Part shown: one piece after another, positions 12,283-19,425 of the stretch
Numbering within the stretch: position 1 is the first letter of the stretch
Layout: every line of letters starts with the position of its first letter
Assembly: GCA_000092065.1 (NCBI GenBank)
Contig: CP000587.1
DNA: 64,000 nt
Origin: Ostreococcus lucimarinus
Taxonomy: Eukaryota
Strand: one strand, 5' to 3'
Notes under the pieces: model-generated
Database searches by the model: none
What the model saw: the letters and a program-made list of their open reading frames with translations, nothing else
What the model was told of the DNA's origin: nothing
Program-made: the position numbers and the translations under genes

Positions 12283-13878
12283 TCATATAGGGGATTCTTC
12301 CCACACCACATCGCTCGCGTGGTCCATCTCATCGTCTTCCTCCATGCTCAGCCGGAGGTACTCTCCGCGAGCGAAGCGGTCCCATTCCGTCAAGTGCGGT
12401 TCTTCGCGCTCTTGTCGCATCAAGAACGGATCCCTCGTTTCAAATGCGATGAACTTGTTCATGTTGAAGAGAACGTTGAAGAAGTTGCCACTCATCTTGC
12501 TCGATCGTAAGTCGTTCAGAGTCACTCTCGCGTCGACTTCGGGCTTGAGCATATCCATCATTTGACACAAAATATCCTCGAACAGGACGGGTTCTTGCGC
12601 CAGGCATTCCATGCGTTGAATCTGTTCCTCATAAAAGTAGTATATCTCATCTCGCGTGATGACGCCGTCGTGATGAGTATCGATGCATTTGAACCAGTAA
12701 TCTAGCGCTAGCGGATGGTTCTTGTTTTCTTCACTCAAAATGAACCAAACAAAGTCTTCGTAGCTCATCTTCCCGGGCACGTCTGATTTGAACGGCCTCC
12801 CCGCCTGGTCAAATATCCTCGCCACGATTCTATACGTCAACGCGTGATTACCGTAATGCAATAAGTCTTCACGATTGATGAAAAAGTCATGGTCGGTATC
12901 GAGTTCCCAAAACTTGCAGTAGATGACGTAGAAATGCTCGTACGAAAAGTACTTCAACACGCGGTTGATGTCTTCCTCTTCTTCGGCGAGCAACATGTGC
13001 TCAAGCAAGTCTGATTTTCTCAACTCTCGCAGCGTCAAACGCCCGTTCCAGGTCGTGTTGCACTCGTAAAATATACGATAAATCACCGTTTCTACGTAAC
13101 GTTCCTGGAATTCGCGAGTGGTCTTCAAAAAATCCAAGCCCGGATGCGTTTGCGTCATCTCCGTGAGCACCTCGGTAAAGTCTGCGTGTTCCAACGCTCG
13201 AGCGTTTGGTCGTCGCAAAATTTCAAACATGGCTGAACTCACATCCTTCTGCCGACGAAGCGTAGAATTCCAATAACTAAACCATTGCTCACGCGTGACG
13301 ACATCCGCATTCGCCCCGGCCACGAGCTTCATCACACGTTTGGCGAAATATCGCGGCAATCCGACGACGTCTCGAACCACTCCCGCGAATGCCTCTAAAT
13401 TCATCCCAGTCAAGTGTCTTTCAAACATGCGCTCCGCCAACGCGACCTTTCCTGCGTTCACCTCTTCGCTCAAGCCTTCACCGCCTGGCTTGTAAAACGT
13501 CGGAATCGAGTGTGGCTCATTCGTCGCTCGAGTGAACAAAGACGCCTGCCTCGACAGCGGTCGCCTCGTAGGCGAAAACGCGCTCGTACCGTACCTCGAC
13601 CCTTTCTGCGGGCTCCTCGGTGGCGTTCCTATCGCTGCAGCGACGTTTGCGTGCATCGCACCGCTCTTCGGCTGTCGCAGCGGTTTCCCGGCCTTCGCAT
13701 CCTTCAACAGTTCGTACACCAAGTTTTGGCTCTCCGCCATGGATAACCAGTTTAAAAATAACTCGTCCAACTTCAGCTTACTGGACGGGAATTTCGACGC
13801 CGCGCTGATGTTTTCGTTCCCTGAGCGTTCGCCCAGGGGCGTTCGCGCGGGGACTTGGATGCTAAGAGACTTGGACAT
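12283..13878 (-). CDS. protein phosphatase 2A regulatory subunit B'' (PR72/TON2/FASS-like, EF-hand)
   Basis: Conserved B'' core with EF-hand (YWFKCIDTHHDGVITRDE). Full-length 531 aa. Confidence 0.8.
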   Translation of the reverse strand: MSKSLSIQVPARTPLGERSGNENISAASKFPSSKLKLDELFLNWLSMAESQNLVYELLKDAKAGKPLRQPKSGAMHANVAAAIGTPPRSPQKGSRYGTSAFSPTRRPLSRQASLFTRATNEPHSIPTFYKPGGEGLSEEVNAGKVALAERMFERHLTGMNLEAFAGVVRDVVGLPRYFAKRVMKLVAGANADVVTREQWFSYWNSTLRRQKDVSSAMFEILRRPNARALEHADFTEVLTEMTQTHPGLDFLKTTREFQERYVETVIYRIFYECNTTWNGRLTLRELRKSDLLEHMLLAEEEEDINRVLKYFSYEHFYVIYCKFWELDTDHDFFINREDLLHYGNHALTYRIVARIFDQAGRPFKSDVPGKMSYEDFVWFILSEENKNHPLALDYWFKCIDTHHDGVITRDEIYYFYEEQIQRMECLAQEPVLFEDILCQMMDMLKPEVDARVTLNDLRSSKMSGNFFNVLFNMNKFIAFETRDPFLMRQEREEPHLTEWDRFARGEYLRLSMEEDDEMDHASDVVWEESPI

Positions 13879-14289: not shown

Positions 14290-16758
14290 TTAGACGGTCG
14301 TCGCCTCGGTTGGTACGGGTGGGTTCCATTTGGCCTCGTACGTGCCGATCGGGAGAACGCCGACTTGCTCAGCGATAGCGTCGTCAAACTTCTCGGTGTT
14401 GCTACCGCTGTGCATGTGCGTGACGACGCCGTCCTTGAACACAAAGAACGTCGGCGTCGACTTGACGGCCAAGCGGTCACGCGCAAGGTGGATGGTACTC
14501 GCATTCTCGTTCCCGTAAATGCGCACGTATCGACACTTCTCGCGGTTGTCGCGCGCGCTTTGTTCAAAGTACGGCAAAAACTTCTTGCACGGCATGCAAG
14601 AGGTAAAGCCGACTTGCAGGACGACGGCGCGTCCCGTGCCCATCTCCTCTTCGAGGACTTGATCGACAGCGGCTTCGGTGTGCAACACTTGCGCCACCTC
14701 GGTCCCGATCACCGACTTATACCAGGTTTCGAATTGATCGAACGTTACTGACGACTCGCACTGCACGTCTATGTCGCAGACGAGCTCACGAACTTCGTCT
14801 TCGGGCAGGCGCACGCCCATGGCGGCGACCATGCGCACGAAGGCGTCCAAATCAATGGCGTCATCGTTAATGTCACCACCAAACTTCTCGAAAAGCTCGC
14901 GAAGTTGGATAGCAGACACGAGTTGCGGCGATCGGCCGACTTCTTTGCCGATCGCAGAACGCACGCGACGAATATCAGCCATGTACCTGAATCGGAAAGA
15001 GCCACCCGCGGCGGCGCCTCGCACGCCTTCGAGAGAGTTGGACCCGCCTATGATGAGCGGAGCAGCCGCCTTACCAGCTTGCACGACGCTCAGCTTTGGC
15101 ACCAGATGCGACCACTTGTCGAAGTTTCTCGCCGCGCTACCGCTGACGACCCATCGTTCCAAGCCACCGCGAGCGCAACGGCAGTTCTCGACCTTGGCCA
15201 AGTGCACCGCCATTCTCGTCGCCCATGCTTTCCACTCTTCTTCATCCTCGCAGTCATCAGCCGGAGGCTTAGCGTTCGCCCACTCTGGTTCGATCCATGA
15301 AATGGCGAGATCGGCTTCTCTGAAATCAGCATTCGTGCGAAGAACACCGTCTCTGAAGAGCGCGACGTGTACAGCTTCGTGGCCGGCGGTGACGACACCG
15401 GTCAAACCGCTCATCGCGTTGTCGGGATCGTCACTATCGAGGGTTTGACCAATCTTGACTCGTCTAGCGGCGTCGCCCCACAAGTCTTGGTGACCGTAAC
15501 CGTGCGCCTCGGCACCCGTGACGACGGTGACGTCCAAACCGACGGCGTTGCGCAACAGCTCCTCGGTTTCTTCGCGTTCGCGGCGTCCCTCGAAAGGGTT
15601 CAAAGTTTCCATCGCGGCGTACACGCTCGTGCCGCCCAACTTCTCGTCAGCGTGCCAAACACCCGGCAACGCGACAGAGACGGAACCTTGCCACTTCAGC
15701 TCCTTGGTGAGCGAGCGCAAAGCCGAGCCGACGGCGTTGATATCCAGCAGGGCGCCCTCGTCCAACGGAGCGGTGATGAGCTCAGACTCGAGTTCACCCG
15801 TGCGCACGTTCACGATCGCAGCGCTGACGATGCCTCCACTCGCGTACGCGCCAAGAATCGCTCTCGGGCCTTCGGCATATACCGATTCAAACGAGGTTTC
15901 CTCCTCCGCCCCGCGCGCGTCCTCGTCCACCTCCATGTCGGCGATACCCCGGCATTCATCCCCCTCCGCGCACGACGCCTTCTCTCCTCGCATCTCCATA
16001 CCGACTCGTCCGAGCGCCATCACCCCAGCCCCCATCGCGCCTCCAATCTTCAATCGATTGCTCGAGATCAACTTATACAGCACGCTCGCCGCGAGGCTGA
16101 TGGCCGGCATCGTCGCCAGCTTCACCGCCCAGCCCATGCCAACCTCCGCGAACAGCGCCTCGATCGCCGGCAATCCTCGCAGCGGTTCGCTTTTATCGCG
16201 TTTCAGCACGTGTATCGTCTCCATCGCCTCCGCGAACGTCACGCCTTGATGTTTCTTCGCGTCGTACGCCGGATCGCTGATGTCCACGTACCACACCTTG
16301 CCCTCGCCCCTCCCCGTCCCCTCGAGCGCGCTCTTCAGCGTCTGGCACACCGGGCACGCGCCGTCGTACAGGTACGCGTACTTCCAGTTCGCCGGTTCTT
16401 CGTCCGCGACCTCGGCGTCGTCGCTCGTCGCGCGCGTCGCGAACGACGCGCGACGTCGGCGCGCGACCGGCGCGACGTCGGCGCGGCGGCTCGACGGCGC
16501 CGCGCGCGCGCCGCGCGTCGAGGCGGACGTCGCGGCGCCGCACAAAGATCGAGGCGCGCACGTTTGCGCGCGCGCGCGCGCGAGCGGCGCGGCGCGCGGC
16601 ATGGCGAGCGGCGCGGTCTGCGGATACCCTCCGGCGGGCGTTAAACCGGGTTTAACGCCGGCGCGCGGAGAGACGCGGAGAGACGCGGAGAGAGGGAGAC
16701 GACGCGGAAGACGACGGCGAACGAAACATGGCGCGTCGAAAGACGCGAAAAACGTCAA
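14290..16758 (-). CDS. multidomain redox protein: DCC-type thiol-disulfide oxidoreductase + ASKHA sugar-kinase-like + EF-hand-like + thioredoxin-fold (CxxC)
   Basis: Motifs read in order N to C: YDGACPVCQ, a GAYASGGI-type kinase fold, VSGSAARNFDKW, and a C-terminal FTSCMPCKKF thioredoxin-like segment. The start may instead be MPRAAPLA at 16602. Confidence 0.55.
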   Translation of the reverse strand: MTFFASFDAPCFVRRRLPRRLPLSASLRVSPRAGVKPGLTPAGGYPQTAPLAMPRAAPLARARAQTCAPRSLCGAATSASTRGARAAPSSRRADVAPVARRRRASFATRATSDDAEVADEEPANWKYAYLYDGACPVCQTLKSALEGTGRGEGKVWYVDISDPAYDAKKHQGVTFAEAMETIHVLKRDKSEPLRGLPAIEALFAEVGMGWAVKLATMPAISLAASVLYKLISSNRLKIGGAMGAGVMALGRVGMEMRGEKASCAEGDECRGIADMEVDEDARGAEEETSFESVYAEGPRAILGAYASGGIVSAAIVNVRTGELESELITAPLDEGALLDINAVGSALRSLTKELKWQGSVSVALPGVWHADEKLGGTSVYAAMETLNPFEGRREREETEELLRNAVGLDVTVVTGAEAHGYGHQDLWGDAARRVKIGQTLDSDDPDNAMSGLTGVVTAGHEAVHVALFRDGVLRTNADFREADLAISWIEPEWANAKPPADDCEDEEEWKAWATRMAVHLAKVENCRCARGGLERWVVSGSAARNFDKWSHLVPKLSVVQAGKAAAPLIIGGSNSLEGVRGAAAGGSFRFRYMADIRRVRSAIGKEVGRSPQLVSAIQLRELFEKFGGDINDDAIDLDAFVRMVAAMGVRLPEDEVRELVCDIDVQCESSVTFDQFETWYKSVIGTEVAQVLHTEAAVDQVLEEEMGTGRAVVLQVGFTSCMPCKKFLPYFEQSARDNREKCRYVRIYGNENASTIHLARDRLAVKSTPTFFVFKDGVVTHMHSGSNTEKFDDAIAEQVGVLPIGTYEAKWNPPVPTEATTV
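16638..16658. repeat. 21-bp perfect palindrome gcgttaaacc-g-ggtttaacgc
   Basis: Inverted repeat with 10-bp arms and a 1-nt spacer in the 5' end/leader of the multidomain redox gene. Confidence 0.85.
16665..16700. repeat. 3 tandem copies of 10-bp unit cggagagacg
   Basis: Read directly, immediately adjacent to the palindrome. Confidence 0.8.
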
Positions 16759-16842: not shown

Positions 16843-17529
16843 TTAAAACCGCTCGGCCAAGCGCGCGGTGACGGCTCGCAAGCGCGAGTACACCTTGCCC
16901 GGAGGCGAGCCTAAGATGAGCGAACAAATCGCGTCTCGCGCCACCTTGATGTTCTGAAACGATCCTAAAATCCGAATGTGCTGATCGGCGATGACGATGC
17001 GCGTCCGCGTCGCGTTTTCAATCGTAAACTTCGTCTTTCCATTCTTCCCCGCCAATCGCCCGATCCCGCGGCTCATGTGCTCTCCCCGCAGCGTCTTCAC
17101 ATCCTTCACCTCAAAACACTCCAAGTACAAGTCATCCAACCTCAACAGCGCCACCGCGTCTTGCACGTCGAACCCGAGCAGAAACGCCTGCACGAAATCC
17201 GCGCTCTTCTGCAGCGCGCTCTCGTCCTCCGTCCTCTCCGTCGTCTTCAGCTCCACCTTTTTCGATTTCAGATTCATCCGCACGTCGATCTTCATCTGTT
17301 TCGTCACCGGTTCGTACAGCGCCATCCAGTGCTCTCGGAGCGGCGCGAACCGATGCGCCGGGACGTTCACCTTGCGGTACTCGTGTTTCGTTCCCTTTCG
17401 CGTCTCCGTGGGCGCGCCGAGCGGCGCGTACACCGGTCGCAGCGCGTCCGCGTCGTCGGCGACGATCGCGCCCGAGGCGTCGACCAACTCGCGCGCGTCG
17501 CGCTCCGTTCTCTTCGTCACCTTCGGCAT
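16843..17529 (-). CDS. PNO1: PNO1/Dim2 KH-domain pre-40S ribosome biogenesis factor
   Basis: C-terminal KH region (FTIENATRTRIVIADQHIRILGSFQNIKVARDAICSLILGSPPGKVY). ATG (MPKVTKR) verified at 17527-17529. Confidence 0.8.
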   Translation of the reverse strand: MPKVTKRTERDARELVDASGAIVADDADALRPVYAPLGAPTETRKGTKHEYRKVNVPAHRFAPLREHWMALYEPVTKQMKIDVRMNLKSKKVELKTTERTEDESALQKSADFVQAFLLGFDVQDAVALLRLDDLYLECFEVKDVKTLRGEHMSRGIGRLAGKNGKTKFTIENATRTRIVIADQHIRILGSFQNIKVARDAICSLILGSPPGKVYSRLRAVTARLAERF

Positions 17530-17730
17530 CGCGCGCGTCGCGGTGGCGCCGTCGCGCCGTCGCGCCGCCGCCGGGACGACCCGTACGGCGTCCCCTAATT
17601 TCACGAAATCCTCGTCGTGACTGTTTGCGCACACGCGACCGACCGATGTCGCATCTCAAGACTCGAGTCTACACACGGAACGAAGACACGCCCGCGCCGC
17701 GACGCGCGTCGGCGCAGACGCGCGCGCGCG

Positions 17731-19425
17731 ATGGCGCGACGTCGGACGCGCGACGGCGCGGCGCGCGTCGCGGTGGCGTGCGTCGCGCTCGTCGTCGCGC
17801 GATCGGTGCGCGCGACGACGACGGCGTCGTGCGCGGCGATGCTCGACGACGACGACGACGCGCCGCGGACGACGTACTCGAGCGCGCGGCGCGCGGAATC
17901 GCGCGAGGTGCGGTACGGGACGTCGTGGAACGCGAGCGGGGAGACGCGGGCGCGGGAGGACGGGGTGACGCTGCGACTGACGGCGCCGCCGTGGTGCGGG
18001 AGCACGCGAGCGCTGGCGCTGGCGCTGGAGCGCGAACTGGCGAGCGAACCGAGCGGAGGGGCGAGAGTGCTGTGGGAACGACCGTGGAGGCCGGAGCGGG
18101 AGGCGACGGGGGGGGCGATCGGGTCGTGGAGCGCGCCGCGGGCGGAGTTTGAGCTGGCGGACGCGAGCGGGACGCGCGTGCGATACGGCGGCGAGTGGAG
18201 CGCGGCGGGTCTGGCGCGCGCGGCGAGGACGCTGAACAGGGAGACGATGGGAAAGAACGAGAGCGTCATGACGCTTTGGCCGTTCGTGCGACTGCGAGAT
18301 AAGTACGCGGTGGCTGATTTTTTTGACAACGGCGCGGCGGAGCTGGCGGTGGTGGTGTTGGATCCGTGCAAGTCGGCGGACGGGTGCGCGTCGACGGCGT
18401 CGATGCGGCGACTTCGCGCGGCGATATTGGAGCGCATCGGGTACACGCCTAAGAATAGACTCGGCGTGTTGATGGGCGCGGACGCCTGGCGCATCGGTAC
18501 GAAGCTGCTGGACGAGTTTGACCCGGACGACATCACCGCTGTCGCCTTCGTTCGAGGCGCGTTGCACTCGGTATGGATGGGGAATAGGAAGAACGAGACT
18601 TCGGTCGAGCGATGGATCGATGAAATCAATAACGCGACGGTATCCACCGTCGTGCGACGCGGATTCTTCAGCCTGAGTGAGTTCAGCCCGGCGGTCGGCG
18701 CGCGGAAGTTGGCGATGATTTTTGCCAACGAAGCGAACGAAGATTTAGACGCTTTAGGCGTACACATTCATCACCTCGTGGATTCGAGTAGTTTAAACGC
18801 CACCGTGGGCGTGGTCGACACCAGCCGTGGGACGTGGTTGCTGTGTCAAATCACCGATAGTTGCGACGATTCCGGGGACGACGAGACGTCGCGGATTCAA
18901 GTCGCGCTGATCGACGTCGAAGAGGACTCTATTCAAACGGTAAACGTGTCCCCGCTTCCCGATGGCGCGCTGTCGGAGACGCGACCATTCACGCGGTCGG
19001 CGCGAAGCGTTCCCAAAACGCCCGCGGGCATGACTCCGCCTCGCGTGCCGCACATCGCGCGCAACCAACTCGATCACAAAGCTGCGCAAACGATGGCGCT
19101 TCGACGACAAGGGAAGTTTTCCGTGCTCTTCTCCTCGTCCGCGTGTGCGTTCTGTCAACGCTTTCTTTCGCTGCTCAACGCGGCGCTGGGCGATCTGGAC
19201 TACCGCGCGCTCGTCGACGGCACACAAACCGCTCGAGCGTTCCAAATCGACTGCGCCGTCAACGACTGCCACGACAGCTGGGACGCCGAAGCGCAATCAC
19301 TCGTCGGACGCGTCCTGCGCTACCCAACCTTGGTCACCTACGACGGCGCAACCGGCCGCATCGCGCGATACACCGGCGCCATGAACGCCAGAGACATCGC
19401 AGAATTCTTAGCCAATGATTTGTAA
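17731..19425 (+). CDS. secreted PDI-like protein with C-terminal thioredoxin domain (CAFC active site)
   Basis: Signal peptide (MARRRTRDGAARVAVACVALVVA). C-terminal Trx-like region (SSSACAFCQRF...RYPTLVTYDG). Confidence 0.5.
   Translation: MARRRTRDGAARVAVACVALVVARSVRATTTASCAAMLDDDDDAPRTTYSSARRAESREVRYGTSWNASGETRAREDGVTLRLTAPPWCGSTRALALALERELASEPSGGARVLWERPWRPEREATGGAIGSWSAPRAEFELADASGTRVRYGGEWSAAGLARAARTLNRETMGKNESVMTLWPFVRLRDKYAVADFFDNGAAELAVVVLDPCKSADGCASTASMRRLRAAILERIGYTPKNRLGVLMGADAWRIGTKLLDEFDPDDITAVAFVRGALHSVWMGNRKNETSVERWIDEINNATVSTVVRRGFFSLSEFSPAVGARKLAMIFANEANEDLDALGVHIHHLVDSSSLNATVGVVDTSRGTWLLCQITDSCDDSGDDETSRIQVALIDVEEDSIQTVNVSPLPDGALSETRPFTRSARSVPKTPAGMTPPRVPHIARNQLDHKAAQTMALRRQGKFSVLFSSSACAFCQRFLSLLNAALGDLDYRALVDGTQTARAFQIDCAVNDCHDSWDAEAQSLVGRVLRYPTLVTYDGATGRIARYTGAMNARDIAEFLANDL

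Follow-up and report, generated by a model that had tools for sequence, protein, structure and literature searches.

What kind of protein is encoded by the long minus-strand open reading frame (ORF) at 14290..16758 of a 64,000-nt stretch of Ostreococcus lucimarinus DNA (assembly GCA_000092065.1, contig CP000587.1)? This stretch, hereafter called the window, consists of eukaryotic DNA with ~60% G+C. An earlier note, made from the letters alone, had read the ORF as a four-module fusion in the order DCC thiol-disulfide oxidoreductase, ASKHA sugar-kinase-like core, EF-hand-like segment and thioredoxin (TRX), and had proposed a redox- and/or Ca-regulated plastid enzyme. Domain and family comparisons bore out the four modules and their order. 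The observation as a whole was thus confirmed, and its interpretation held in part. We consider it fairly probable that the locus is an intron-less nuclear gene for an organelle-targeted (probably plastid) multi-domain thiol-redox protein, which belongs to a small green-algal family and represents an elaborated relative of calredoxin.

The locus is a single gene

An ORF scan of the window revealed 822 uninterrupted codons, counted from a TTG, with no internal stop. Because the ORF is uninterrupted and matches a RefSeq protein exactly, the locus is one real gene. The matching database entry, from O. lucimarinus CCE9901, is annotated merely as "predicted protein" or "Thioredoxin domain-containing protein". 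The coding sequence (CDS) starts at the ATG at 16602, and the in-frame codons upstream of it are probably 5' untranslated region:

14290..16602, minus strand: complete, single-exon CDS of 770 aa plus stop, identical to XP_001418952.1 / A4S0D0 of O. lucimarinus
16603..16758, minus strand: TTG-started part of the ORF, 52 in-frame codons without an ATG, outside the annotated protein

The 822-aa ORF reported previously was therefore correct as an ORF, and not as the extent of the protein, since 52 of its in-frame codons are non-coding. Residue numbers used here follow the 822-codon ORF, so that Met1 of the protein becomes residue 53. Both motifs quoted from the translation were found, YDGACPVCQ at residues 131-139 and SCMPC at residues 720-724. 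Other long ORFs in other frames over the locus were without homology support, and are a chance product of high-GC DNA.

The EF-hand pair and thioredoxin domain resemble calredoxin

The C-terminal thioredoxin fold with its SCMPC site stood as first described; the likeness of the whole EF-TRX half to calredoxin had been missed. The features of this half are:

14710..14913, minus strand: EF-hand pair, degenerate in O. lucimarinus, residues 616-683, matching EF3-EF4 of calredoxin
14359..14691, minus strand: calredoxin-type thioredoxin domain, residues 690-800, with a G749-N-E-N752 insertion and the cis-Pro P769
14587..14598, minus strand: TRX active site C721-M-P-C724, with Ser720 before it and Lys725 after it

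Residues 710-795 matched Pfam Thioredoxin (PF00085) above threshold (24.6 bits vs 23.5). The best PDB sequence match was 5e37, an "EF-hand domain-containing thioredoxin" that aligned over 99 residues without gaps at E 1.7e-9, compared with ~1e-5 for ordinary thioredoxins. This entry is Chlamydomonas calredoxin (PMC4911631). The Tetraselmis family member aligned collinearly with calredoxin at E 3e-24, its EF pair on EF3-EF4 (111-191) and its TRX domain on 206-313. In the GNxN segment calredoxin aligned ungapped, and generic thioredoxins needed a four-residue gap. The CxPC motif and the cis-Pro were kept in all complete members, and the Trp that usually precedes CxxC in thioredoxins was Phe or Tyr in the family and Ser in Mamiellales.

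In the crystal structure of calredoxin, N267, N269, T236, K242 and K263 connect Ca site 4 with the cysteines of the active site (PMC4911631). With an ungapped offset of +483, calredoxin T236/K242/K263/N267/N269 correspond to T719/K725/R746/N750/N752 of the window protein, and the positions of Thr719 and Asn750/Asn752 were invariant across the family. By this alignment, the EF-TRX unit keeps the inter-domain coupling residues of calredoxin.

The EF-hand pair itself presented a graded picture. In the window protein, the Pfam EF-hand_7 pair (residues 619-681) scored 21.4 bits against a cut-off of 30, that is, below threshold; the pair in relatives scored 42-56 bits, above it. In all Ostreococcus sequences, the EF1 loop (G627-A639 in the window protein) carries one extra residue and has Gly and Ala at positions 1 and 12, respectively, and the EF2 loop (D664-Q675, D-V-Q-C-E-S-S-V-T-F-D-Q) has Gln at position 12. 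Both loops were canonical in Tetraselmis and most other distant members, e.g. DNDGNGELDARE and DTDNSGSVSFSE. Mesostigma has a canonical EF1 and an EF2 in which position 12 is not Glu, the latter being shared by a few other members; in Bathycoccus, EF2 alone is canonical (DMDDSNKISFEE). The label "EF-hand-like" given to this segment is apt. The Glu at position 12 of an EF-hand coordinates Ca in a bidentate manner, and E12Q is the exchange routinely used to abolish Ca binding. High-affinity Ca2+ binding in O. lucimarinus is unlikely, because the position-12 Glu has been lost from both loops, and Ca regulation in this species is, on the same sequences, doubtful.

We therefore weighed whether Ostreococcus might still possess a full calredoxin-type Ca2+ sensor-responder, whose non-canonical loops bind Ca2+ and switch the TRX domain, and judge this unlikely. 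In EF2, D664, Q, E and T still provide oxygen ligands at positions 1, 3, 5 and 9, respectively. D664 is the counterpart of calredoxin D157, whose contact residue N269 is kept here as N752, and canonical loops occur in relatives. Set against this are the Gln (EF2) and Ala (EF1) at position 12 in every Ostreococcus sequence, the Gly and the insertion in EF1, and the sub-threshold EF-hand_7 score.

The middle domain has a PPGK-type fold and most likely no kinase activity

We next consider the region between the two redox modules:

14959..15870, minus strand: PPGK/ROK-type ASKHA domain with degenerate catalytic motifs, residues 297-600, from NCBIfam, a PDB profile comparison and the family alignment

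On its own, the window protein matched the NCBIfam polyphosphate-glucose phosphotransferase (PPGK) model (NF045942) over residues 307-561 at E 1e-7, with 32-36 bits against an equivalog cut-off of 250, and it gave no match to Pfam ROK (PF00480). Relatives cleared the Pfam ROK threshold (e.g., 38.1 vs 22.9 for P0030), and none was shown at the PPGK equivalog cut-off. A profile built from ten diverse middle domains reached PDB 1woq, the inorganic polyphosphate/ATP-glucomannokinase (PPGMK) of Arthrobacter, as its best match at E 2.6e-28 over 251 of 272 profile positions, with other ROK kinases far lower. All ten of these domains matched NCBIfam PPGK (best E 1.3e-35), and six matched Pfam ROK. An AlphaFold (AF2) model of residues 283-822, built with 21 diverse sequences, had a mean predicted local distance difference test score (pLDDT) of 74.9 and a predicted template modelling score (pTM) of 0.71, and hints at a defined arrangement of the three domains. 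This model was used instead of a full-length one built with 11 close homologues, which was unusable (pLDDT 44.5). The ROK-repressor structures 5f7p/5f7r were among the structural matches of the middle domain. These results confirmed that the middle region adopts an ASKHA/ROK fold of the PPGK branch of the ROK family; the sugar-kinase-like core noted previously is borne out by the 1woq match, the ten PPGK matches and the AlphaFold model alike.

The catalytic motifs, by comparison, were degraded throughout the family. The Asp of the phosphate-1 motif GIDIGGT is replaced by an invariant Tyr (LGAY305 in the window protein). The PPGMK segment INDADAAGLAE has become (T/S/A)GAEAxGxGE, so that in every member the catalytic Asp is Gly and the preceding Asn is Thr, Ser or Ala; the window protein reads VVTG415AEAHGYGH, with Gly415 at the catalytic Asp. 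The sugar-binding ExGH motif (ELGH in 1woq) aligns to unconserved residues and is lost in all members, and the classical ROK zinc motif CxCGxxGC was not found. Most members have GRGIG for the phosphate-2 motif GTGIG, and Ostreococcus has GHEAVH (VVTAGHEAVH in the window protein). The adenosine-loop motif PDxIIIGG and the C-terminal motif AGxKGAA survive in the family, and the window protein retains VVSGSAA and EGVRGAAAGG. New invariant residues have also arisen, namely the Glu of TGAE, several Trp and one Arg. In ROK kinases, the Asn-Asp pair supplies the catalytic base and sugar ligands. Since the phosphate-1 Asp, the catalytic Asp and ExGH are lost in all members, the middle domain is most likely a pseudokinase. 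Its mean column identity within Mamiellales is 83%, and the domain is therefore under selection, though not for sugar phosphorylation.

These data bear directly on the possibility that the middle domain is an active sugar kinase, driven by polyphosphate or ATP and switched by the redox modules and EF-hands, in line with the redox/Ca-regulated plastid enzyme of the earlier note. In favour of it are the fold and a strong overall homology to PPGK/PPGMK, the survival of the adenosine-type GG loop and of the C-terminal AGxxGAA motif, and an invariant Glu (TGAE) near the lost catalytic Asp. However, no member has the phosphate-1 Asp, the catalytic Asp with its Asn, or ExGH, phosphate-2 in Ostreococcus is GHEAVH, and the PPGK score lies far below its cut-off. 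We regard an active kinase as very unlikely. The proposal of a redox- and/or Ca-regulated enzyme was thus not upheld, given a kinase-like domain devoid of these residues in all members and Ostreococcus EF loops devoid of the position-12 Glu.

The DCC module and further conserved cysteines

The N-terminal redox module and the remaining cysteine features are:

16039..16371, minus strand: DCC1-like thiol-disulfide oxidoreductase domain (Pfam PF04134), residues 130-240
16345..16356, minus strand: DCC redox motif C135-P-V-C138, the DxxCxxC motif within D132-G-A-C-P-V-C
15946..15987, minus strand: family-specific tail after the DCC domain, GEKASC263AEGDEC269RG (Cx5C)
15154..15198, minus strand: Mamiellales-only insertion AKVENC526RC528ARGGLER inside the pseudokinase, from the alignment

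The DCC domain matched PF04134 at E 2.1e-19 with 71.2 bits (cut-off 27.8), over profile positions 2-112 of 113. A sequence comparison with the PDB detected no solved structure for this module. The DxxCxxC motif was kept in all family members with an intact N-terminus. The motif behind the domain, GE(x)xSC-x5/6-CR, was invariant in every DCC-bearing member and absent where DCC is absent. Arabidopsis DCC1 reduces its partner protein CA2, according to a review (PMC7598583).

Three further cysteines, C503 (in DDC503), C526 and C528, were conserved in Ostreococcus and Bathycoccus only, and no other family member has them; they might serve as a regulatory disulfide or a metal site specific to this lineage. 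We also considered CRCARGGLE as a relic of the ROK zinc motif and rejected this, as the diverse alignment placed it in a Mamiellales-only insertion just before the adenosine loop. Together with C135/C138, C263/C269 and C721/C724, the Mamiellales cysteines would give up to four potential thiol or metal centres.

The conservation of these residues also informs a different reading, in which the protein has a mainly structural part in a larger organellar complex and can do without its redox chemistry. There is a precedent in the plastid RNA polymerase: the plastid thioredoxin TRX z is functionally coupled, through a thiol-dependent interaction, to the sugar-kinase-like proteins FLN1 and FLN2, which serve as inactive partners, with a redox activity that is not required under standard growth conditions (PMC4036507). 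The strong conservation of the pseudokinase in Mamiellales would fit such a role, with its invariant Trp and Arg as a possible interaction surface. Yet the DCC CxxC, the Cx5C tail, the TRX CxPC and the cis-Pro are conserved family-wide, which argues for selection on chemistry, and the FLN fold is pfkB rather than ROK/ASKHA, so that the parallel is an analogy only. We hold a mainly structural role to be quite unlikely.

The four-module fusion recurs across green algae

Ostreococcus clades and Bathycoccus prasinos supplied 25 close homologues (62-99% identity), which were collinear wherever complete; the shorter entries among them are truncated gene models. We then exhaustively searched 1.84 billion representative proteins with a profile of the Mamiellales middle domain only, in which the PPGK homology is not yet clear as it is with the diverse profile. 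This search returned only 28 matches at E <= 1e-3, with no ordinary ROK kinase and no bacterial PPGK/ROK among them. The longer matches, among them Cymbomonas tetramitiformis KAK3245275.1 and Tetraselmis chui, share the order DCC, ROK-like domain, EF pair and TRX. The DCC domain is absent from Mesostigma viride Mv09621 and from at least two metagenomic lineages, in which the presequence is followed by the ROK-like domain, EF and TRX. All 16 examined matches that reach the C-terminus have EF and/or TRX-like sequence after the middle domain; P0029, with an EF pair and no intact TRX, is counted among these 16. The other 11 real matches of the 28 were short fragments or were not inspected. Word-indexed searches with diverse full-length and DCC-module alignments found the same family or its fragments only. 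The family thus occurs in both Chlorophyta and a basal streptophyte, in three-module and four-module forms.

The remaining match, P0047, is probably a compositional or repeat artefact and not a homologue. It is a 1788-aa repeat protein of bacterial look with ~100-residue units, and it aligned six times with a 66-residue part of the middle-domain profile (E 5.5e-8). Separately, a precomputed PF20207 match lies between DCC and TRX in three homologues from Ostreococcus clades, P0019, P0020 and P0022; a Pfam scan of P0019 (E <= 1) did not reproduce it.

In T. chui, all four modules lie on one MMETSP contig. Because this sequence is a transcriptome contig, the four modules of T. chui form one mRNA. 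Whether orthologues are fused or split, and whether the modules share a transcript, had been named as checks on the fusion. The orthologues proved fused and collinear in Ostreococcus, Bathycoccus, Cymbomonas and Tetraselmis, with the last three modules alone in Mesostigma, and the single transcript was found in Tetraselmis. It could still be supposed that the long ORF is an annotation or assembly artefact joining separate genes, given an unusual architecture and many fragmentary metagenomic homologues. But there is no stop in 822 codons, the full-length architecture occurs on many independent contigs from several genera, the Tetraselmis transcriptome contig included, and the fragments are put down to the use of prokaryotic gene callers on eukaryotic contigs that are short or contain introns. 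Such an artefact is scarcely credible.

Putative organellar targeting

The protein begins with a candidate targeting peptide:

16408..16602, minus strand: presequence, putative organellar targeting peptide, residues 53-117, rich in Ala/Arg/Ser/Thr; from composition only

The first 66 protein residues contain 20 Ala, 13 Arg and 7 Ser and carry a net charge of +9. Presequence length and sequence vary between homologues. An organellar presequence is plausible, with plastid and mitochondrion indistinguishable from composition. Calredoxin is located in the chloroplast.

Neighbouring genes

Downstream of the gene lies a 531-aa ORF (12283-13878, minus strand) with EF-hand_13 and an EF-hand pair (E 1.2e-29), an architecture which we take to be that of the PP2A regulatory subunit B''. 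The GC content over 12-14 kb is 0.516, lower than that of the window. The upstream neighbour (16843-17634, minus strand) encodes a PNO1-type KH-domain ribosome-biogenesis protein (KH_PNO1_2nd, E 7e-41), and its stop is ~240 bp from the start codon of the gene studied here. Such close gene spacing is typical of the compact Ostreococcus genome. Neither the PP2A B''-type EF-hand protein nor PNO1 gave a functional clue.

About 1 kb upstream, a divergent 602-aa ORF (17617-19425, plus strand) shows a weak C-terminal thioredoxin-like match to PF13098 (24.6 bits vs a cut-off of 27) with a C-A-F-C motif, and may be a second, unrelated TRX-fold gene. A 388-aa ORF overlapping it (17601-18767, minus strand) is probably spurious.

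Discussion

How might such a protein work? In the reading that we favour, a thiol-redox protein related to calredoxin, import into an organelle would follow from the composition of the presequence and the chloroplast site of calredoxin. The TRX domain would be the working, catalytic end and would reduce disulfides of target proteins, perhaps, on the model of calredoxin, those of a 2-Cys peroxiredoxin. Its activity would be set through the EF-pair/TRX interface, and we infer a dependence on the adjoining EF pair because the isolated TRX domain of calredoxin is inactive (PMC4911631). In most family members this interface would respond to Ca2+. In Ostreococcus, the EF pair would probably be a fixed structural adaptor, because its Ca ligands are lost. 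The pseudokinase would not phosphorylate sugar and would provide a scaffold for dimerisation or docking, or sense a phospho-ligand, and it may signal to the TRX domain through the long helix that joins it to EF1. The DCC domain with its Cx5C tail would constitute a second thiol-disulfide centre, exchanging electrons within the polypeptide or dimer, with the TRX domain or with the TRX targets.

Several points weigh against this reading or parts of it. The assignment to the plastid, which we take as probable, is based solely on composition and analogy. With a TRX-only family profile, calredoxin ranked top at 81.8 bits and human TRX1 reached 75, a slim margin; the shared GNxN insertion is a more specific calredoxin signal than this margin. 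Ser720 in place of Trp could lower or alter TRX activity. In the pseudokinase, partly retained GxG/GG loops make nucleotide or phosphate binding possible, and the invariant Glu located two positions beyond the missing Asp might conceivably take over as the base. Literature searches found no paper describing the architecture or naming the accessions.

A bolder version treats the protein as a three-input plastid sensor-responder, possibly the ancestor of Chlamydomonas calredoxin. Here the pseudokinase would be a receptor for a phosphorylated ligand (polyphosphate, nucleotide or sugar phosphate) and would gate the TRX domain together with Ca2+, and DCC/Cx5C would supply or drain electrons. If true, it would link metabolite status, Ca2+ and thiol redox in one polypeptide; we think it rather improbable.

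To our knowledge, calredoxin is the sole described protein that directly couples Ca2+ sensing to thioredoxin activity in the chloroplast, and has so far been seen as a Chlamydomonas-type oddity. A calredoxin-related EF-TRX unit lies within a larger conserved protein in prasinophytes, Chlorodendrophyceae and the basal streptophyte Mesostigma. Each module is of a known kind, the EF-TRX unit being calredoxin-like. What is new, as the sequences indicate, is the conserved combination with a PPGK-derived pseudokinase and DCC, its distribution among green algae and the graded disappearance of Ca ligands within Mamiellales. The family offers a handle on the origin of calredoxin, on the role of a sugar-kinase pseudoenzyme beside a thioredoxin, a covalent parallel to TRX z with FLN1/2, and on the role of DCC domains. 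The EF-loop series, from canonical in Tetraselmis and other distant members through half-degenerate in Bathycoccus to fully degenerate in Ostreococcus, provides a natural comparison for the gain or loss of Ca2+ gating. Ostreococcus tauri is genetically tractable. On the basis of sequence and structure inference only, the protein would be a solid lead for chloroplast redox and Ca2+ signalling.

Comparison with known systems

Calredoxin of Chlamydomonas reinhardtii (CRX, Cre03.g202950, PDB 5e37) is alike in its EF-TRX half. CRX consists of four high-affinity EF-hands and TRX alone, whereas the protein described here has one EF pair, degenerate in Ostreococcus. A PPGK-derived pseudokinase of ~300 aa precedes this pair, and most members also have an N-terminal DCC domain. 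The active site is SCMPC here and WCRPC in CRX, and Gln154 of the CRX coupling path is not conserved.

The PPGK/PPGMK enzymes (PDB 1woq) share the fold and a strong overall homology with the middle domain. In contrast to them, the domain here has Tyr for the phosphate-1 Asp, (T/S/A)G for ND, no ExGH and an altered phosphate-2, and the segment after phosphate-2 is replaced by a conserved Trp-rich stretch. It is, furthermore, eukaryotic and fused to redox modules; the characterised PPGK enzymes known to us are all bacterial. ROK-family repressors (e.g., Lmo0178, PDB 5f7p/5f7r) use a ROK domain without kinase chemistry as a sensing or oligomerisation module. They carry a DNA-binding domain, whereas the partners here are redox modules and the sugar-binding residues are lost; NagC-type ROK repressors generally retain theirs.

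An intact DxxCxxC motif and a Pfam score well over threshold are shared with the DCC family. Typical, characterised DCC proteins are small and stand alone, whereas here the domain has a Cx5C tail and three further fused modules. Lastly, TRX z and FLN1/FLN2 are separate polypeptides without EF-hands or DCC, the fold of FLN is pfkB, and their relation to the protein here is one of functional analogy and not of homology. FLN1/2 are said, in work of Arsova et al. from 2010, to be without fructokinase activity.

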